The position numbers were made by a program, and so were the translations under genes. From contig CAJWCD010000008.1 of NCBI GenBank assembly GCA_913020725.1, positions 1-49,425 on the forward strand: a DNA stretch of 49,425 nucleotides, read 5' to 3'. A model generated the notes under the pieces. It made no database searches and was not told where the DNA came from. It saw only the letters and a program-made list of their open reading frames with translations. This document shows positions 16,285 through 34,137 of the stretch, piece by piece (position 1 is the first letter of the stretch; the number at the start of each line of letters is the position of its first letter). The stretch comes from an uncultured Pseudomonadota bacterium (GTDB taxonomy: Bacteria; SAR324; NAC60-12).

Positions 16285-17022
16285 ATGGGGCAGCAGGAAA
16301 GGGTGGCAGACGCGGTGATCGCCGCCGCCGGACAGGGAAAGCGCGTGGGGGCTAGGCGTAACAAGCTCCTGCTTGCTCTCGGGGACAGGAGCGTTTTGGA
16401 GCGCACCATTGAGGTGTTCCGGACGCATTCACGCATTCGTCGCATCTGGCTGGTGGTGTCACCACAGGATCGCGATGAGATCGAAACTCTAACGGCTGGA
16501 ATGGACATCACTCTTGTGAACGGAGGAATCCGGAGACAGGATTCGGTGCATTGTGCGCTCACGCAACTCCGTGAATCCGAGGCACCTACGCATGTGCTGA
16601 TTCAGGATGGCGCACGTCCCTTCACCACGCACGACTTGATTGACCGTATTCTCGATGCCTGTTTTGAGCATGGCGCCGCAATTCCGGGGGTGCCGTTGAC
16701 GGACACCATCCGACGGATCCGGGAAGGAACAACCGAAGTGATTGACCGCTCCAAACTGATCGCCGTGCAGACGCCGCAGGGTTTCCAACTGGACTGGCTC
16801 TGGAACGCTTCGCAGCAGGCGCAAGCACAGGACGGCTCCGTGACCGATGATGCCAGCCTGCTGGAAAACGCCGGGCATCGAGTTCACTGCGTTCCGGGAG
16901 ACCCCGACAACCGCAAGCTCACCATCCCAGAGGATTTCGAGTGGGCAAGGCGGCTTCTCGTCCAAGTCCATCCAGCAACGTTTTCCTCTCGTTCCGCACT
17001 CTCCATGCCGCTCCATGCCTGA
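16285..17022 (+). CDS. ispD: 2-C-methyl-D-erythritol 4-phosphate cytidylyltransferase
   Basis: AAAGQGKR, GGIRRQDSV, QDGARP, VQTPQGF, TDDASL and KLTIPED. Confidence 0.95.
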   Translation: MGQQERVADAVIAAAGQGKRVGARRNKLLLALGDRSVLERTIEVFRTHSRIRRIWLVVSPQDRDEIETLTAGMDITLVNGGIRRQDSVHCALTQLRESEAPTHVLIQDGARPFTTHDLIDRILDACFEHGAAIPGVPLTDTIRRIREGTTEVIDRSKLIAVQTPQGFQLDWLWNASQQAQAQDGSVTDDASLLENAGHRVHCVPGDPDNRKLTIPEDFEWARRLLVQVHPATFSSRSALSMPLHA

Positions 17023-19774
17023 TCGCTTTTTCGTACAACCGAATGGATTTTTCCTTTGGCAAAGGGGCGGGTGGGCAGGGCTACGGGCGTGGCTGCTCTG
17101 CTGTTGTTTCGTGCTGGCCTGCGGTCTCTTTCAGCCTGTCGAAAGCTGGGCAGCCAAAAAGAAAAAAGTCACGATCAACCTGCCCCAGACGCTGATCCTC
17201 AAGGAGTTCATCAAGATCATCGCCAACGAAACCGACACCGTTTTCGTGTACGAGGAGAAGAACCTCCGGGGGCAGATGTCCATCACCGCCCCGCCCAATT
17301 TCAAGATCACCTCTGAGGATGCCTTCTTCTTTTTCGAGAAAATTCTCCAGAAACAGGGCCTTGCGATGGTCCGGAGACAGGGCAGCAACGTTGTGGAGAT
17401 TTTGCCCTCCGGGGATGCAAGGTTTTCCCAACTGCCGATTTCCCGGGACGAGGATGGGCTGTTGCGGGAAACCACCCACGTCATGCGGCTGATCCGCATC
17501 AAGAATAGTGACCTCAAACGCATCCAGTCCACCATCCAGCCGATCTTTTCGAAGACGGGAGTGATGCTTGTTTACGACCCCTTGGATCTGCTGATCGTCA
17601 TTGACAGTGCGGCGAACATCAACCGGCTCGTGGAGATCATTGACGTGCTAGATGTCCCTGATCCGGATGGCTTGGAGCAGATCGTCACGGTTTACAAGTT
17701 GCGTCATAACAGCCCGGCAGAGATTCATAAGACGATCACGGAACTCTTCTCCAACCTGATTCGCAACGGACGCCCCTTACGCTACAAACTACTCATCGAG
17801 AACCGGCTCAACTCGCTCATCCTCATCGCCAACCGTGCCAATGGCAAGGAGATTCTCAGTTACATCAAGCAGTTGGATGTTCCGGTTCATGGGGCCACAC
17901 CGACCATCCACGAATTGCGTTACGGAGAGCCGGGAAAACTTGTCCCGCTGATCTCCCAGATTTTCCCGAAAACAGAATCCATCAAGCTCATCCCGTTCAC
18001 TCCGCTGAATGCGCTCATCATCCTTGCCAATCCAGTGACGACGCAGGAGATCATCGGACTCGTCAACCAGCTCGATCTCCCCCGGGGCAACTACCTAATC
18101 AAACTTCATCGACTGGAATACGCCTCTGCGAAAACACTGGCCCCACTGCTCTCCAGCATTTTTGCCGACCGCATTGTCGCGGGCAAGGGGGAAGGCAAAA
18201 CTGCCCCCGGAAGTCAGGTCAAGATCATCGCTGAGTCGCGTCTCAACGCGCTCATCATCATTGCGGATCGCCTCGCGACTGAGCGCGTCATCAAGCTAGC
18301 CAACCAGCTTGATGTGCCGCAGAGCGGAGGCGGGGAAATCCAAATCCAGTTGGAGCGATTGCGCTACACCTCTGCCAAGGTGATGGCTCCGTTGCTCTCG
18401 AAAATTTTCGCCGACCGTATCGTTGCAGGCAAGGGCGAGGGGCAGGCGACACAAAGCAGTCCCATCAAGATCATCGAGGAACCCCGGCTCAACGCGCTCA
18501 TCATCATTGCCGGACGGTTGGAGATGGGGCGCGTTCTGGAACTCGTCCAGCAATTAGATGTTTTTCAAGACACTGGGCGCATCCAGAGCAATTTCAAACT
18601 CTATCGGCTTGAATATGCCGTTGCCGAAGATCTCGCCAAACTACTCAAGGAAATGACCGGGCAGATCACTGAGGTTTCGCGCAACGAGCAGGAAGGGCAG
18701 GCCGCCCCGCCGGAGTCAACAAAACCCGCATCCGGGAAGTCCGAGATCACCATCAGCGCGGACGAAGCGACGAATTCCCTGCTCGTCTTCGCACCCGCCG
18801 ATACCTACCTCACACTTGACCAACTTGTCGAGGAACTGGACGTGCCCCGCATGCAGGTGTATGTCGAGGCGCTCGTGATGGAAGTGTCGCTCACCAAGAG
18901 CCTCGACCTTGGCGTCAAGTGGCGTGCAGCGGGCGTAACCTCCAGCGGAAAAATCATCTCCGGAGGGTGGGGATCAGGTGCCGGGCTTGATTCTGCTTCG
19001 ATTGGAACCAATGCAAACTCGGCAAACTTGGGGTATATGGGAGGCAACACCCTCAGCATTGGGGGGACCAGCTACACGAGTTTTGGTGCGTTCATCAGCG
19101 CAACGAAAACTGACACGGACGTGAACGTGCTGGCGAATCCACAGTTGCTGATGCTCAACAACGAGGAGGCGACGATCAACGTTTCCACGAACACACCCGT
19201 GGGGGTGAAGACCATCACGAACGCCAACAACACCCAGACCACGCAGTACGAGTTCAAGGATGTGGGGGTGAAACTCACCATTAAACCGCAAATCAGCGGG
19301 GAGGACAGCATCCGCTTGGAGATTGCTCAGGAATCGAGCAACATTGCGACCGAGCAAAAATTGAGCGCAGACAAGGCGATCATGACCTTCAAACGTGAAC
19401 TGAAAACCACGGTCGTGACCGGAAATGACGACATCGTGGTGTTGGGCGGCTTGATCAACGAAGGTGACACTCGCTCCGAATCGAAAATTCCGGGCTTTGG
19501 GGATTTGCCGTTGCTCGGTTGGTTGTTCCGGAGTAACACCGGAAAGTTCGAGAAAACCAACCTACTTATTTTCATCCGACCCACGATCATCCGCAATCGC
19601 GCAGATTTGGCACGGGTGACGGAGCGGGCACGGGTACGGTATGATGCCAGCCAAGGCCCGCAAAGCGTTTCCGGAACAGTCCGTGCAGACATGGGCCTGA
19701 AGGAACCCGAAAAGGAAACGCCCAGTGCCGGAGGGACTGAGGCCGAGGCAGCGGGCGCAACAGAGCAGCCCTGA
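17015..19774 (+). CDS. gspD: Type II secretion secretin with expanded N-domain array
   Basis: Signal peptide; repeated (RL)N.LI...QLDVP N-domains; QVYVEALVMEV, ANPQLLMLNNEEA and KIPGFGDLPLLGWLF...NLLIFIRPTII. Start uncertain. Confidence 0.92.
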   Translation: MPDRFFVQPNGFFLWQRGGWAGLRAWLLCCCFVLACGLFQPVESWAAKKKKVTINLPQTLILKEFIKIIANETDTVFVYEEKNLRGQMSITAPPNFKITSEDAFFFFEKILQKQGLAMVRRQGSNVVEILPSGDARFSQLPISRDEDGLLRETTHVMRLIRIKNSDLKRIQSTIQPIFSKTGVMLVYDPLDLLIVIDSAANINRLVEIIDVLDVPDPDGLEQIVTVYKLRHNSPAEIHKTITELFSNLIRNGRPLRYKLLIENRLNSLILIANRANGKEILSYIKQLDVPVHGATPTIHELRYGEPGKLVPLISQIFPKTESIKLIPFTPLNALIILANPVTTQEIIGLVNQLDLPRGNYLIKLHRLEYASAKTLAPLLSSIFADRIVAGKGEGKTAPGSQVKIIAESRLNALIIIADRLATERVIKLANQLDVPQSGGGEIQIQLERLRYTSAKVMAPLLSKIFADRIVAGKGEGQATQSSPIKIIEEPRLNALIIIAGRLEMGRVLELVQQLDVFQDTGRIQSNFKLYRLEYAVAEDLAKLLKEMTGQITEVSRNEQEGQAAPPESTKPASGKSEITISADEATNSLLVFAPADTYLTLDQLVEELDVPRMQVYVEALVMEVSLTKSLDLGVKWRAAGVTSSGKIISGGWGSGAGLDSASIGTNANSANLGYMGGNTLSIGGTSYTSFGAFISATKTDTDVNVLANPQLLMLNNEEATINVSTNTPVGVKTITNANNTQTTQYEFKDVGVKLTIKPQISGEDSIRLEIAQESSNIATEQKLSADKAIMTFKRELKTTVVTGNDDIVVLGGLINEGDTRSESKIPGFGDLPLLGWLFRSNTGKFEKTNLLIFIRPTIIRNRADLARVTERARVRYDASQGPQSVSGTVRADMGLKEPEKETPSAGGTEAEAAGATEQP

Positions 19775-27971: not shown

Positions 27972-28382
27972 TGCGAAAGGGTGCAAGTAAAAGTAAGACT
28001 TTTGCTTAATCAGTCCGGTATGTGCTGCATCCAGTAGTTGGTCCAACGTTGATTTTTCCGGGCGACTCTGAGTGCGAGCATGGAGTTGGCATTCTCCAGT
28101 TTCCACCAAGCCCCCGGGATTTTGAGCCGTTTTTGAATGAGATGCCGATGTGAGCTTTCAATCAGTCCGGATCCAATGAGCAACTGCTTGGTAGGGGCAT
28201 ATCATTAAATGATATAGTGGTAGTAGCTACGAACATAATACCAATTTGTGATTCAAATGTGCCATTGTCATTGAAATCTCTTCGGCTTCGCTTGAGTGAT
28301 CCATGAATGTCAATGGAAGGTTTCTAATCGTAAACGGTATAAGCCGTCTGAACAAGGAATTCAGCAAGAAGCACACCAGTGG

Positions 28383-28398
28383 TGGAATCATACTTGCA
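28383..28398 (+). promoter_or_regulatory. Putative sigma54 (-24/-12) promoter
   Basis: TGGAATCATACTTGCA has exact TGG-N8-TTGCA spacing, ends 40 nt before ATG 28438, and lies in an AT-rich divergent intergenic region. Confidence 0.55.
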
Positions 28399-28437
28399 GA
28401 AGACTCTCCGAGACCTTTTGGCTTTTGTGAACCCTGC

Positions 28438-29535
28438 ATGACTTCCACCTTGCTTCGCTTCAGCAAACTACCCCTTGCACTCCTGACCCTATCCATCCTC
28501 CTCTTTGGAACGGTGGGTTGTTCCAGTTCTGACCCGGAACCTCCGGAGAAACCACAACGTTCCTCAAAGCGCATCTCCGAAAAACAGGCGGAGTCCGAGG
28601 AAGCCGAGGTGCAGGAACTTCAGTATTGGGGCGATCCCCACCTCACGCTGTTGGAGCAGATCATGCCTAAGCTGAAGCAGGAAACGGAGGGCTTGTTCGA
28701 CAAGGCCAACTCGGTGGCGATTTCCAGCATTTCTTACGGCGACAAGCTGCCGAACCACTTCCGGAAGGTGGCCACGGCCCGACTGCATCAGGTGCTGACG
28801 CGGTTGCCCAAGCTCAAGGTGAGCGTCTGCGAAGCCTGTAGCCAAATCCGCACACAGATTTCCGGAAGTTACCTCAAGATCACCCGTGGGATCGCGGATG
28901 ACGAATACCGCCGCGAAACCGCCCAGCAACTCAACGTCGAGGGCTTCATCGACATTGCGCTCTTCATGAGCGACCGACAGCTTTCCGTGTCACTCAATGC
29001 GTATGAGGCGCAAAAGGGCGAGATCATCTATTCCCGCATCGTCACCAGCGAACCGATGAAACGCGAGGAATACCTGCACGTCTATCTGGGCAAGATGACC
29101 CTGCCAATCAACGAACCCTCCCCCCGTTCAGGAAAAACCGTGCTCCATCAATCCATCATCTTGGGCGCAGAGCGGGTGGTGCGGCTCAATCAGGGCTGGA
29201 CTTCTGGAATCAGCGCTGCGTTTTTCAGCGATGACAACAGCAAGCTCACCGCTTCCGAAAAAGTCAGCGGCGGCACCAGCGGGGTGATGGTGGACGGCGT
29301 GGTGGGCTACGATGTGGTAGGCTTTGGCAGCAACCGAGGGGCGGTCACACTGAACCTCGGCTTGGGGATGATGATTGCCACCTCCATCAATTCGCCTCCA
29401 TATTTAAAAACCGGGGTGTCCGTCACAGTTGCAGAGCAACTGACGCTGGGCTACAACTACCTCCTCATGCTCACCAGTACCACTGCGCTCAAATTGCCCA
29501 GTGCTTCTTACTTTGCGGTCGGATGGAAATTCTGA
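28438..29535 (+). CDS. Outer-membrane lipoprotein; CsgG/FlgO-like alpha/beta domain plus probable C-terminal beta-barrel
   Basis: Lipobox TVG-C; VAISSI...AQQLNVEGFID...VSLNAYEAQKGEIIYS pattern; CEAC; ends YFAVGWKF. The fold call is inferred. Confidence 0.55.
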   Translation: MTSTLLRFSKLPLALLTLSILLFGTVGCSSSDPEPPEKPQRSSKRISEKQAESEEAEVQELQYWGDPHLTLLEQIMPKLKQETEGLFDKANSVAISSISYGDKLPNHFRKVATARLHQVLTRLPKLKVSVCEACSQIRTQISGSYLKITRGIADDEYRRETAQQLNVEGFIDIALFMSDRQLSVSLNAYEAQKGEIIYSRIVTSEPMKREEYLHVYLGKMTLPINEPSPRSGKTVLHQSIILGAERVVRLNQGWTSGISAAFFSDDNSKLTASEKVSGGTSGVMVDGVVGYDVVGFGSNRGAVTLNLGLGMMIATSINSPPYLKTGVSVTVAEQLTLGYNYLLMLTSTTALKLPSASYFAVGWKF

Positions 29536-29546
29536 AGGTAAAAGAA

Positions 29547-30959
29547 ATGCTCGAGTGCCGGAAGGTGCCGCGAGGGCGCTTGGCTCCCTCGCGGCAGCTT
29601 GCGGGCATGTTGGCGGTCCTCTGCATGATTCTGCTTTCCGGATGTGGGGACAAACAGACGGAACCACCGCAAGAGGAGGAAATTGCGGCCAAACCCGTCG
29701 TCAAGAAACTGCTCTTCACGCAACGCACCCAGGGCGGCAAGAACTCGATCGACGTCATCGAGGAAACAGAGGGGTACCGGCGCACCCTGCGGATTGTGCT
29801 GCAACGCGGCGACCTCAGTTCCAATCTGATCCACCCCATCGACAGTCCAAATTTCGTCATCGCCGTTCCGCTTCAGGACGCAACGAGCAAGCAGTTCAGC
29901 CTGCAAACGGCAGTTTATGAACTGCGACTCAAGGAGCATATTGATCAACTTCTGGCCCGCTACCTTGCTCCGGAGCGCTACAACGTTTCAGTGGTCGTGT
30001 CGTGGGACGAGAAGCTCTTGCAGGAGGTCCAGCTCAAGAGCCTACCGATTGACACTCCCGTGGACGCTCTCCCACTTCCAAAAATGCCGGAGGCCCAAAC
30101 TTCCGAAGAGGGCGAGGCGGGTGCCGAAAGAAATGCTGGAAACTTGCCTGTCACACTGGATGAACCCACGCCCACCCAGCGTGTGCGCAGCGTGAATCCA
30201 GACTCCAACTACGAACTCAAGTACGCCGTCGTTTCGGTCAAGGTGCAGGTGCTTTTGGACAACACGCTGCCGGGCAGTCAGGAGCAGTTCATCCAGCAAC
30301 TCATTCCGGTGCAAGAGTTCTACAACGCCCAGCGCGGCGATAGCGTAACGGTGCAGCGCACCTCATTTCCTAAACCCTTCTCTGACAGCGTGGCCCCCTA
30401 CGAGGAGCAGATCATCATGCGTAAGCTCACAGAATTGGTGCAGAAATATGTGTCGCCCAACGAGTTTGTCGTCAATGTCAAGTTCACGCTGATCGATACA
30501 GAATCAGCAACGGAGTCGTCGAGCAACATCAAGATGAACATCGACCTGCTGCTCGACGAGGTCGTGCTTCCAGACGTGGACACCTTCCTACAGGAGGCGA
30601 TCCCACTGGCCGTCAATTTCAACGCCGAACGCGGGGACACGCTCAACATCATCCGCAAGCGTTTCCCAGAACGAAACTTTGGTTCGGTTTCCTCTGAACA
30701 GGTTGCTGCACTCCGGGATTACAAGGACAAGATTCTGGAGGCGTTCCAGACCGGCGATTATGTGGGAGGCTTGGAATGGGCCGACAAGGGACTGCGCATC
30801 GCGGTGCGTCGCATGGACAAGGTATTTTTGATGAAGATGAAAGGCTCGCTCCACTTCCTGCTTGAGGAGAAGGATAAGGCGCTGGAGGTTTGGCAGCACG
30901 TCCAGCGGCTGGATCCGAGTGACGAGGAGGTGCGGCAGATGCTGGAGAACCTGCAATAA
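29547..30959 (+). CDS. Lipoprotein with two FliF-C (RBM3)-like domains and C-terminal TPR
   Basis: Lipobox LSG-C; YNAQRGDSVTVQRTSF and FNAERGDTLNIIRKRF resemble the FliF xRGDxxxV motif; ALEVWQHVQRLDP TPR. Confidence 0.65.
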   Translation: MLECRKVPRGRLAPSRQLAGMLAVLCMILLSGCGDKQTEPPQEEEIAAKPVVKKLLFTQRTQGGKNSIDVIEETEGYRRTLRIVLQRGDLSSNLIHPIDSPNFVIAVPLQDATSKQFSLQTAVYELRLKEHIDQLLARYLAPERYNVSVVVSWDEKLLQEVQLKSLPIDTPVDALPLPKMPEAQTSEEGEAGAERNAGNLPVTLDEPTPTQRVRSVNPDSNYELKYAVVSVKVQVLLDNTLPGSQEQFIQQLIPVQEFYNAQRGDSVTVQRTSFPKPFSDSVAPYEEQIIMRKLTELVQKYVSPNEFVVNVKFTLIDTESATESSSNIKMNIDLLLDEVVLPDVDTFLQEAIPLAVNFNAERGDTLNIIRKRFPERNFGSVSSEQVAALRDYKDKILEAFQTGDYVGGLEWADKGLRIAVRRMDKVFLMKMKGSLHFLLEEKDKALEVWQHVQRLDPSDEEVRQMLENLQ

Positions 30960-30966
30960 AGACAGA

Positions 30967-32169
30967 ATGCTTCGCGTTGCTTCGCGCCCTTCGTGGCTCA
31001 AAAAAGCACTTGTCTTGTCCGGGATTATCATGCTGACAGGCAGTGCCCCAGTGTGGTCGGCGGACACCCCACCTGCTCCGGAACCGGAAGCGGAGGTCGT
31101 GGATGACCCTTCCCCGCAAGCCGCCGAGCAAGCGGAGGGCAAGCGGCGTAGCCTTGAGGAATTGCTCGCGGTGCCGTTTCAGCAACTCAAGGAAATGCAG
31201 CAGGCGGAATATGGTGAGATCGAGCCGCTTCCGGGAGAGGACAACGCCACTGTCACCCGTTCCGAAGCTGGAGATATCCGACTCCCCCCTCCGCCGGAAC
31301 AGGGCAAGCACGAACGCGACCTAGAGCAGCAGCTTGACGTGATCCTCCGGGAGCAACTCCCAAGCGAATACGTCGGCGTCACCGTCAGCGTCAAGTACAC
31401 CCTCCAGACGATTCCGATTTCCAAGAGCAACAAACAGATTTCCAAGGTCAAGCTTCCGGGGTTTGAGAACAACGTCTGGGTGCCCACCGAGAAGAAACGT
31501 GTGGTAGGAATCATCAATCAGATTCAGACCTACACGACCATCTTTGTCGTGGTCAATCAACCCATCTCGCTCTTCAATGTGGAAGTGCTGCGGCAAGTGC
31601 TTTCGGATCGGGTGGAGGGCTTGAACCTGCGGGCACAGGATGTCCTCAAGGTCGTCTATGTGCCAACGTCCAAGCCTTCGGAAGCGCGGGTTGAGCGTTT
31701 GAGCAACGCCGCCGCCGAACACGAGGAGGCCAAACAGGCTGCAGAAGCCCAGCGGATTAAGCAAACTGCGGCTGCTGAAGAAGCAACCACAGAGGGTGAA
31801 ACCACAGAAAAGGCAGAAGCCGAAATCCCTGCGGCCAAAGCAGAAGCGGTTGCCGAGGCAGAACCAGAAGTGGAAAAACCCGAAATTCAGCCAGAGGACG
31901 TGGACATGCAGGCGCGGATGGAAACCACGCGCTATCTGTTGCAAGCCCGCGAAGCCTACTTCCAGAACGATTTCGACAGCGCCATTGATGACATCCGCAA
32001 AGCGCTGGAGATCAATCCCTACTCCTCGCAGGGCTACGAAATGCTCGGTTCGATCTACTATCGGCTCAACTGGACCAGCATGGCCGCAGAAAACTGGCAA
32101 CGCGCCTTAGAACTTGATCCAGAGAACAAAAATCTCCGCAAATACCTCAACAAACTGACACGACGATGA
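30967..32169 (+). CDS. Exported protein with FliF-RBM3-like domain, Ala/Glu linker and TPRs
   Basis: Signal peptide (VWS-A); ERDLEQQLDVIL...VTVSVKY...LPGF...IFVVVN...LRAQDVLKVV; KALEINP and RALELDPEN TPRs. Confidence 0.6.
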   Translation: MLRVASRPSWLKKALVLSGIIMLTGSAPVWSADTPPAPEPEAEVVDDPSPQAAEQAEGKRRSLEELLAVPFQQLKEMQQAEYGEIEPLPGEDNATVTRSEAGDIRLPPPPEQGKHERDLEQQLDVILREQLPSEYVGVTVSVKYTLQTIPISKSNKQISKVKLPGFENNVWVPTEKKRVVGIINQIQTYTTIFVVVNQPISLFNVEVLRQVLSDRVEGLNLRAQDVLKVVYVPTSKPSEARVERLSNAAAEHEEAKQAAEAQRIKQTAAAEEATTEGETTEKAEAEIPAAKAEAVAEAEPEVEKPEIQPEDVDMQARMETTRYLLQAREAYFQNDFDSAIDDIRKALEINPYSSQGYEMLGSIYYRLNWTSMAAENWQRALELDPENKNLRKYLNKLTRR

Positions 32170-34109
32170 TCCGACGAAACGCAATCGTTCTGGCAGGAGT
32201 GCTAGGGCTGCTCTGGGTCTGCTTGGTGCTGCCCAACATTTCCGGGGCACAGGAGCGGGTGAAGTCACTCACCATCCGACAGTTCGAGATTGAGGAAGCG
32301 ATCCGTAACGGTCTCAAGTATTACCTCGAACCCCGCGATTATGTGCTGCGTGTCAAGCTCACGGGCGAGCAACGTGTGGCTGGCGTTGAACACGAGGCGC
32401 TGCCTGGTTTTGGGCCAATGGTGAATCCTGCGCAAGCAAAGGGTGAGAAGTACTGGGAAATTCTGCGGATGCAGGTTGACCTTGTGATGCACAAGGAGGT
32501 TTCACCTTCGCTGAACACCTACATTTCTGAGATCGTTCCTATCCTCAGCGGACTCGATTACGAACGCGGCGACGAATTCAACTTTGTGCCGATCGTGCCA
32601 CAGGCATTGGAACCGCCTCCAGTCGCGCAAGCGCAAGCGGCACCGGCCACCATCGAAGCAGAAAAACCGGAACCCGAAAAACCAGCGGTGGTCGTGGCCA
32701 CTCTCCCCAAAGCCGACGAGCAAAAAGGCGAGCAACCCCAAGAGACGTCTAAAACCCAACCGGAACCTGTGGTCGACGGTCCGCCTCCAGGGTTGTGGGA
32801 AGCGATGACGTTGGTTGAGAAGGTGCTTGCGGTAGGATTGGCGTTGCTGCTGCTGCTGCTGCTCTTCGTCTTGTGGAAACTGAACCGAATGCAGTCTGCG
32901 GAACAACAAGGGCTGGCGAAGCTGCTCGCACAGCAGCAGCAGCTTGCACTTCCGGGAATGGGAGCGATGGCTTTGCCTTCCCCCCAACAGACGTTGGAGT
33001 CGGTGGAGGAATCTCGGAGGAAGTATTTGCAGACGCAGGAATCTCAGGTGCAGGAGGCGTTGCTGCAAGAGAGCAACGAGCGCATGGCGCAAGACATCGT
33101 CAAGCAACTTGTGGGACGGGATGATTGGAAGCAGGACTTGATTCAAGAGATGACCCGCGACAAGCAGTCAATGGAATCGCTCACCCAACTACTCGCGGTC
33201 ATTGGCCCGGAAACCACCCGGAGTCTGTTTGGTCGGGTGATGCCGCAAGACTCTTTTCTGGAACTCGAACAACTCGCCCGTGATGCAAAGGTTTCCACGG
33301 CAGAAGCAAACACGACACTCAAGAACGTCGCGATGTTTCTGCTCACCCGCAAACTGATTGCTCCGGAACAACCGACGACCAACCTCTTCGGCTTCCTTGA
33401 GGAGATGTCCACGGGGCAAGTGAGCTATCTCATCAACGATGAACCTTCGAAAATCAAGGCCATCGTCATCAGCCGACTCATCAGCGAACAGGCCGCAGAA
33501 ATCCTCCACAACATCTCCAAGGACGAGCGTACTCTGGTTGCCGTCGAATTGGGACGGCTCAGCGAACTACCCACCAAGCTCGTGGAGCAGGTGGCCTATA
33601 ATTTGGCGGACAAGGCACGGACAGTTCCGGACGAGAACTCGGTGTCGGTTGACGGCATCCGCTTTGTCGCGGACGTGCTGGGAGACGCCGACCCGACCAC
33701 CCGTGAGGAACTGCTCAACGGTTTGCGCGTTACCGATCAGAAGCTCAGCGAGGAAATCGAAAGCCGCTGCTTCATCTTCGACTCCATCCCTTTCGTACCC
33801 CGTGAGGTGCTGGTGGAGGTGGTCCGGAAGCTGCCGCCGGATGTGGTGGTGACGGCAATTTCCGGAGCCGACAAGTCCATTCAGGAAGCCGTGGTGTTGT
33901 GCTTCCCGGAGCAGACGCGCAAGGCGATCGTCTCTGCGCTCAAGGCCAAGAAACCATCTGCCGAGGAAATCCGCGAGGCCCGCCAGCAGTTCGTGAAGTC
34001 CATGCGCAGCATGTCTGATGCGAACAAGGTGGACCTCCGCGAAGTCAACTCCGCCTTCTCTCACCAAGAGAGTGCCCCCGCCCTCAGCTACGAGGAACAA
34101 CCCGCCTGA
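32166..34109 (+). CDS. FliF-like ring domain / TM helix / FliG(N-M-C) fusion protein
   Basis: Signal peptide; GLDYERGDEFNF; TM at ~32823-32876; FliG-like LLAVIGPE, FGFLEEM..INDEPSKIKAIVISRL..EQAAEIL, DGIRFVADVL, LSEEIESRCFIFDSI and EIREARQQFV. Confidence 0.8.
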   Translation: MIRRNAIVLAGVLGLLWVCLVLPNISGAQERVKSLTIRQFEIEEAIRNGLKYYLEPRDYVLRVKLTGEQRVAGVEHEALPGFGPMVNPAQAKGEKYWEILRMQVDLVMHKEVSPSLNTYISEIVPILSGLDYERGDEFNFVPIVPQALEPPPVAQAQAAPATIEAEKPEPEKPAVVVATLPKADEQKGEQPQETSKTQPEPVVDGPPPGLWEAMTLVEKVLAVGLALLLLLLLFVLWKLNRMQSAEQQGLAKLLAQQQQLALPGMGAMALPSPQQTLESVEESRRKYLQTQESQVQEALLQESNERMAQDIVKQLVGRDDWKQDLIQEMTRDKQSMESLTQLLAVIGPETTRSLFGRVMPQDSFLELEQLARDAKVSTAEANTTLKNVAMFLLTRKLIAPEQPTTNLFGFLEEMSTGQVSYLINDEPSKIKAIVISRLISEQAAEILHNISKDERTLVAVELGRLSELPTKLVEQVAYNLADKARTVPDENSVSVDGIRFVADVLGDADPTTREELLNGLRVTDQKLSEEIESRCFIFDSIPFVPREVLVEVVRKLPPDVVVTAISGADKSIQEAVVLCFPEQTRKAIVSALKAKKPSAEEIREARQQFVKSMRSMSDANKVDLREVNSAFSHQESAPALSYEEQPA

Positions 34110-34137
34110 GTTTTCCCTGCTAATCGCAGGGCAACTC
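34108..34137. terminator. Hairpin between convergent operons (probable terminator)
   Basis: GAGTT-TT-CCCTGC-TAATC-GCAGGG-C-AACTC stem-loop just after the stop codon. Confidence 0.5.

Follow-up and report, generated by a model that had tools for sequence, protein, structure and literature searches.

A predicted rotor-stator module built around a FliF-FliG fusion protein in SAR324 bacteria

To our knowledge FliG has no job outside the flagellum. What, then, is a FliG doing at the end of a four-gene operon (here genes A to D) of envelope proteins in an uncultured SAR324 bacterium? The operon lies in a 49,425-nucleotide stretch of DNA (the window: contig CAJWCD010000008.1 of assembly GCA_913020725.1), and an earlier note on this DNA had taken it for a non-flagellar envelope machine made of FliF and FliG parts. 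That reading is upheld: an RBM3 fold is seen in the predicted model of D, gene order is conserved in 27 of 38 related loci (the remaining 11 are truncated at contig ends), and A-D are not the only fliF/fliG of the genome, which also has one canonical fliF and two canonical fliG genes. We further predict, with somewhat better than even confidence, that A-D plus a dedicated MotA/MotB stator make up an ion-driven (probably Na+-driven) motor whose rotor does not switch and whose torque reaches the outer membrane via stacked rings. The basis of this prediction is domain make-up, gene order, co-occurrence, a sigma54 promoter motif and residue changes.

Gene D is the core of the argument (domain boundaries are in Table 1). 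Pfam matched FliG_C (E 2.3e-16) and FliG_M (E 1e-9) in it, so the FliG fusion claimed for the last gene is real at the level of domains, but the cut-off of the TIGR00207 equivalog family was not reached. In an AlphaFold model (mean pLDDT 75.7, pTM 0.33, 14 sequences in the alignment) the periplasmic domain matched the FliF S-ring (VIA Z 12.4, root-mean-square deviation 3.6, 93 residues aligned; Foldseek probability 1.0, E 1e-3), other VIA matches being SpoIIIAG (Z 6.9) and PrgK/EscJ (Z 6.6-6.7). The cytoplasmic part gave 288 residues aligned to residues 2-327 of Salmonella FliG. The TM1-RBM1-RBM2 region, which in FliF houses the export gate, is not in D: RBM3 comes directly after the signal peptide, and YscJ_FliF is unmatched. 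D thus looks like FliF minus TM1, RBM1 and RBM2, fused to FliG. The long helix of D was also tried as the C-terminal part of FliF and gave no significant match (hhalign probability 1.7%).

The FliG moiety of D differs from canonical FliG in its motifs. The EHPQ motif, which we take to be the FliM-binding motif, is found in 30 canonical FliG sequences (in four of them offset by one column); in 35 D sequences the Glu alone is retained, His and Gln being substituted. In a FastTree phylogeny built on the M-C region of FliG, 151 fused sequences stand apart from 30 canonical ones (branch 1.05, support 0.83); as the canonical set is from SAR324 only and the wide set was picked by likeness to D, this split excludes a recent local duplication, no more. 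Strongly divergent D-like genes are also found as orphans, with no adjoining A, B or C (G057 L046:8641-10458, G059 L047:7363-9153 and G006 L049:6961-8733).

Is there a stator to go with this rotor? Neighbour scans in relatives revealed motA and motB directly 3' of D or directly 5' of A. In the source genome (G000) the ortholog is on another contig (C1:85217-86824, MotA 61% identical) and is distinct from a flagellar-type motA with two motB genes on contig C21. A phylum profile of 88 SAR324 genomes, in which A was counted at E<1e-40 and cognate MotA at E<1e-120, gave A in 44 genomes, cognate motA in 42 and both in 40. Two more carriers of A also have a stator, G061 (with a motA fragment at a contig edge) and G011 (with its own linked motA), making 42 of 44; A occurs without a stator in G023 and G054, and a stator without A in G064 and G065, which are about 50% complete. 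Among high-quality genomes (34 tallied, 35 by automatic count) 14 have both, 20 have neither and none has one alone. Leaving genera g1, g5 and g12 aside, A and motA share a contig, within about 7 kb, in 22 of the 25 genomes with A. The dedicated motA/motB pair makes the module a rotor-stator system.

Judged by sequence, this stator is of the flagellar and not the ExbB/TolQ type: cognate MotA matches MotP/PomA at E 1e-38 to 1e-28 versus 1e-4 for ExbB/TolQ, and cognate MotB retains the plug, the OmpA-like domain and the conserved Asp. The expanded cytoplasmic interface is there as well; all of these are flagellar-type features according to PMC12505986. All 16 cognate MotA sequences have the three-threonine site, as do all 25 flagellar ones; PMC10374538 describes these threonines as a Na+ filter. 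In a MotA tree 23 module-type sequences stand apart from the 25 flagellar sequences (support 0.98). The interface charges differ as well. Net charges were: torque helix (17 columns), D, +2.7 (range +1 to +5, n=35), canonical FliG, -2.3 (n=30); MotA interface, cognate, -7.6 (n=16), flagellar, -0.7 (n=25). The torque residues are presumably R281, D288 and D289 of FliG with R90 and E98 of MotA; cognate MotA retains the two acidic contact positions and has the Arg displaced by one position. We read the D torque helix and cognate MotA as a putative co-changed pair that would have no cross-talk with the flagellar motor.

The promoter region was also compared. The sigma54-like motif upstream of A and the hairpin downstream of D, both reported earlier, were confirmed, as was the tight co-oriented packing of the genes on the plus strand (11 nt between A and B, 7 nt between B and C, and C and D overlapping by 4 nt). 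The motif precedes A in 13 of 16 A-first loci, although 10 of the 13 are close kin with an identical motif, and motA in 11 of 12 motA-first operons, against a background of 38 in 2580 upstream regions; its place thus shifts with the leading gene of the operon. A single sigma54 gene is present in the genome. A loose form of the motif goes with 38 genes, of which fliF and a probable FlhG-like gene were the only ones that looked flagellar by eye, and no regulon was therefore drawn.

Genes B and C supply further ring-type units. The count of four RBM3-like units (two in B, one each in C and D) was borne out by profile-profile comparison (hhalign) with 26 canonical SAR324 FliF RBM3 sequences; D's alone was folded, those of B and C being sequence profiles. 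Results against FliF RBM3 were: B1, probability 92%, E 5.9e-7; B2, E 3.5e-5; C unit, E 6.5e-4, probability 27.5%, the weakest of the four; D unit, E 8.3e-5. Against the D unit, B2 reached a probability of 98% and the C unit 93.5%. B1 also matched Pfam YscJ_FliF_C at E 0.0011, under the cut-off. None of the four exceeded a probability of 1.3% against FliF RBM1/RBM2, and two control regions stayed below 1%. When the unit profiles were run against all open reading frames of the genome, significant matches were confined to B, C, D and a paralog on contig C11 (see below). A sequence search of solved structures with B found TPRs and a weak FliF match (E 0.036), nothing else. Four copies of the C unit (aa 106-238) submitted to complex prediction gave no ring model: the scores were 0.16 and 0.19, where 0.42 was the mark, and the controls were not folded. 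Both proteins said to end in TPRs do so, C strongly and B weakly (Pfam TPR_2, E 0.031).

An outer-membrane lipoprotein had also been proposed for the operon, and A had been read as such. The conserved lipoprotein is instead B: both have lipoboxes here, but the Cys is invariant only in B. In families f2, f3 and f7 B is two genes, one for a lipoprotein with TPRs and one for an exported RBM3-TPR protein, so the fusion seen here ties ring units to a lipid anchor. The number of RBM3 units per operon is three in f2, four in f3 and here, and apparently five in G007.

Gene A is predicted from its model (pLDDT 77.8) to be an outer-membrane barrel protein. Foldseek matched the model to TolB, LpoB, OmpA and Ail, and VIA gave Z 15-17 for the barrel, which is OmpA-like, and Z 9.2 for LpoB; CsgG/FlgO is absent among the fold matches listed. 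Pfam has no family on A, and a sequence search of solved structures gave no match. The CxxC of A is found in 32 of 32 SAR324 homologs and is absent from four of four Elusimicrobiota-like proteins. A PorG/SprF-type disulfide link of A was considered and rejected, there being no conserved partner cysteine in B, C or D.

How might these parts work together? RBM3 and FliG form rings, and MotA5B2 turns FliG. D would form an inner-membrane ring, with the RBM3 S-ring outside and the FliG ring inside, and MotA5B2, held to the peptidoglycan through MotB's OmpA-like domain, would pass Na+ by way of the three-threonine site and turn the FliG ring. Since the FliM motif is missing, the rotor would turn one way, without CheY switching; since RBM1/RBM2, export gate and rod are missing, D would carry the RBM3 units of C and B as a stack. 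The stacked rings across the envelope suggested in the earlier note would then be a hollow shaft or bearing in place of the rod, reaching up to the lipid anchor of B. The TPRs would couple this stack to the periplasmic domain of barrel A, the outer-membrane end of the machine, and the motor would work on outer-membrane proteins. Moving surface adhesins for surface motility or attachment is the most likely work, in view of the type IX analogy and of large beta-sandwich proteins next to several related loci (both below), though we propose it tentatively.

Several observations weigh against this proposal. Linkage of A and stator is 0 of 19 in genera g1, g5 and g12, which include the source genome; none of 16 unlinked motA genes has the sigma54 motif, so co-regulation with A-D in the source genome lacks support; and the canonical fliF of that genome carries a similar motif. 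The acidic pair of the torque helix is present in none of 35 D sequences, which have a new Arg and a Lys/Arg instead, and with the canonical torque residues lost, torque coupling could be lost too. Neither the wider D family (mean +0.06, n=107) nor C11-type and Elusimicrobiota-like MotA (-1.2 and -1.5, respectively) show the charge swap, which makes it a change of a single lineage, with the sampled kin dependent on one another. flhA is found in 43 of the 44 A-positive genomes, so that independence from the flagellum within SAR324 hangs on one 90%-complete genome. The FliF-likeness of the C unit is weak, the operon has no adhesin among its constant genes, and a wide ring passing through the peptidoglycan is a difficulty.

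What else could the module do? Ranked next after adhesin movement, but in our judgment unlikely, is an ion-powered envelope energiser or transporter, in which MotAB would push D, much as ExbBD, TolQR or GldLM act on the proteins they drive, so that export, import or outer-membrane upkeep could proceed via the hollow stack of RBM3 units, movement playing no part. The TolB_N/LpoB-like domain of A fits this idea, as do the conserved predicted outer-membrane barrel that follows D in family f2 and the FecR-domain gene at the C11 locus; RBM3-type rings also line a channel in SpoIIIAG, which is among the fold matches of D. However, the flagellar-type character of the stator argues the other way, an 8-stranded barrel is too narrow for protein passage, and the loci share no conserved gene for an ATPase, an export gate or a cargo.

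A less probable role is that of an accessory to the ordinary flagellar motor, with A-D adding extra periplasmic rings and a second stator set round the basal body. Besides its canonical fliF and fliG genes, G000 has flhA, rod/hook genes and its own motAB (domain matches: flagellin 18, FliM/N 10, rod/hook C-domain 4). The co-occurrence with flhA noted above favors an accessory role, as does the similar sigma54 motif of fliF; the fold class of the periplasmic domain of A includes flagellar outer-ring proteins. The neighbour scans found no linked export gate, rod, hook or FliM/N, and scans of window open reading frames (sets of 32 and 11) found no flagellar or mot families, in agreement with the earlier note; flagellar genes are scattered in this genome, however, so absent linkage says little. 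Against an accessory role, 31 of the 76 flhA-positive genomes (of 88) lack the module, and D and its MotA are lineages separate from SAR324 flagellar FliG and MotA. Further, G074 (90% complete, 310 contigs), the exception among the 44 carriers, has an intact operon; flagellin, flhA, rod/hook C-domain and flagellar motA were not found in it, whereas a congener has 8, 1, 5 and 1, respectively. G074 does retain fliG and a FliF without the beta-collar. Finally, the core of the module is found in a mostly non-flagellated phylum (see below). The motor module is therefore likely to be distinct from the cell's ordinary flagellum. It is akin to the flagellar motor core, and what sets it outside the flagellum is export housing, switch motif, torque charges and linkage.

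It is of note that the two fliG genes of G000 are orphans beside only one fliF and one flhA, and that fliG copies reach four in some relatives. In the G074 FliF (L209:2418-3818, contig C26) the loss of the beta-collar is in frame, and a 400-aa protein of G039 matches similarly in part.

It is improbable that the module is a load or surface sensor, that is, a rotor-stator reporting outer-membrane load through ion flux or stator occupancy while doing no useful work. Loss of the FliM motif and a conditional role under sigma54 control would suit a sensor, and a literature listing gives flagellar stators a function in surface sensing, but the operon has no conserved signalling gene. A decaying relic of a second flagellar system, which lost canonical rotor motifs and patchy presence might suggest, is already largely refuted by intact frames, gene order conserved across four families, a conserved promoter and about 110 clusters (50% identity) that share the architecture.

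The predicted rotor-stator module can be set beside known systems. It shares with the flagellar motor core the RBM3 S-ring fold, the membrane helix, the FliG N-like, M and C domains, and a stator with a plug and a peptidoglycan-binding domain; it differs in having FliF and FliG as one natural chain with no TM1/RBM1/RBM2 or FliM motif, in its changed torque charges, in the lack of linked export gate, rod and hook, and in its added RBM3/TPR proteins and predicted outer-membrane barrel. The nearest working analogy, with no homology, may be the type IX/gliding machinery (GldLM, the PorKN/GldKN ring, 8-stranded PorG and the adhesin carrier SprF). As described in PMC12635249, an ion motor of the inner membrane there rotates a periplasmic ring with a lipid anchor, and this ring drags proteins of the outer membrane along; in the module the inner membrane would instead be the place of the driven ring. 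Family scans put no Gld or Por family on A-D; the genome itself was not searched for Gld genes. Like the injectisome, the module would be a flagellum-derived envelope machine with ring-building motifs, but the reverse of it: the injectisome retains export without the motor, whereas the module kept rotor and stator without export. The D unit is RBM3-like, and less like PrgK/EscJ. No non-flagellar type III secretion set (SctJ-type RBM1-RBM2 ring, SctRSTUV, ATPase, linked secretin) accompanies it, and the genome has a single flhA/sctV-family gene.

Other parallels are more limited. The SpoIIIAG/SpoIIIAH feeding-tube rings are likewise a stand-alone RBM3-type module outside the flagellum; FliG and a stator are not known there, and the host here is diderm. 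Myxococcus Agl-Glt and Zorya ZorAB also use a MotAB-family ion motor without a flagellum. AglRS, however, groups in a generic (TolQR-like) clade according to PMC12505986, and the module stator has neither the ExbB/TolQ-type A subunit nor the ExbD/TolR-type B subunit of Agl-Glt, Ton and Tol. Zorya has ZorA with ZorC/D/E; a scan of six proteins gave no ZorA or other defence model on MotA or A-D, and MotB matched generic ZorB models only.

How widespread is the module? A D profile retrieved 160 clusters (50% identity) at E<=1e-30. The best 150 of these include 109 distant proteins of at least 520 aa, mostly with LPG and RGD motifs and a membrane helix before FliG. Of ten looked up, one is named Elusimicrobiota. 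Atlas clusters, as leads only, suggest carriers in Bdellovibrionota, Balneolota, Bacteroidota, Cloacimonadota, Pseudomonadota and Elusimicrobiota. In eight Elusimicrobiota-like metagenome loci D is followed by A in six, stands alone in one and is broken in one, and the three loci long enough continue with a TPR gene, then motA. D-A-TPR-motA-motB is thus a five-gene core that recurs in distant metagenome loci. The Elusimicrobiota-like TPR protein has no RBM3 unit, making the stacked units a SAR324 addition to this core. According to one paper (10.1101/2022.07.08.499144), most Elusimicrobiota are non-flagellated yet have fliG and motAB in the absence of structural flagellar genes, and it calls the role of the two unclear; the case for flagella-free carriers outside SAR324 rests on this paper, our whole-genome profiling having covered SAR324. 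Surveys (10.1101/2024.12.05.626484) likewise note rotor genes without filaments and leave them unexplained.

The module offers a concrete explanation for such rotor genes and for the Elusimicrobiota fliG and motAB, and it implies that fliG/motAB annotations may falsely suggest swimming. In SAR324 the module further has a charge pair of rotor and stator that appears to be orthogonal, in a cell with a normal flagellum, and ring units that vary from three to five. The literature covered, which excludes subscription-only papers, holds no description of the A-D operon or of its FliF-FliG fusion that we could find, and the available part of PMC13277936 has nothing on such fusions. It is conceivable, although we would not yet bet on it, that this is a widespread second flagellar-type motor with a one-chain rotor, a charge-matched Na+ stator and a FliF-like ring stack that moves outer-membrane adhesins. 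If so, an abundant marine lineage, and non-flagellated phyla too, would have an unknown engine for moving over surfaces, which would also show in living cells what the motor module was like before, or became after, it joined type III export.

Table 1. Features of the operon, with positions in the window
Feature	Position	Strand	Details
Sigma54-type -24/-12 motif	28383-28398	+	55 nt before A start
Gene A	28438-29535	+	365 aa; signal/lipobox; periplasmic LpoB/TolB_N-like domain with CxxC; predicted C-terminal 8-stranded outer-membrane beta-barrel (model and fold matches)
Gene B	29547-30959	+	470 aa; lipoprotein; N-terminal beta domain; two RBM3-like units; C-terminal TPR
RBM3-like unit B1	29889-30374	+	about aa 115-276
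RBM3-like unit B2	30387-30674	+	about aa 281-376; short insert
Gene C	30967-32169	+	400 aa; signal peptide; one divergent RBM3-like unit (about aa 108-236) with invariant LPG insert; linker; C-terminal TPRs
Gene D	32166-34109	+	647 aa; signal peptide; FliF RBM3/short collar aa 30-146; membrane helix from about aa 216; long helix; FliG N-like, M, C aa 331-630
Hairpin, possible terminator	34108-34137	+	-15.3 kcal/mol, z -3.8; before convergent downstream gene

Other loci carry related genes. On contig C11 of G000 (L052:1-12531) there is a second, divergent module, with an RBM3-TM-FliG-like gene of 579 aa and motA, together with a long motB containing an insert, a probable outer-membrane barrel, a FecR-domain gene and three large exported proteins. 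It is partly conserved in G013, G006 and G010, and in the G010 homolog the motB insert is Calx-beta. The barrel after D in family f2 (L089:10523-11806, L079:10676-11920 and L086:9118-10350) has no Pfam family and has three distant unlinked homologs in G000. A-like genes adjoin 1400-1800 aa TPR/CARDB or carboxypeptidase-regulatory-like proteins at L102:8347-15037, L104:1516-12129 and L048:903-8345, and large carboxypeptidase-regulatory-like (beta-sandwich) proteins adjoin L036, L038, L048, L099, L104 and L105, though not the window operon.

The hairpin after D has no U-run and was not listed by a terminator scan; the sigma70 and terminator scans performed at chance level. Metatranscriptome contigs (4 of 23 listed runs) span the operon and its flanks equally and so give no operon-specific expression signal. 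Elsewhere in the window (16847-19774) is a gene for a 975-aa secretin that has six Secretin_N stretches; no further secretion genes were recognised around it. At 28190-28230 RNA-library contigs from two runs match the window and then diverge, which suggests a short repeated element upstream of the promoter.

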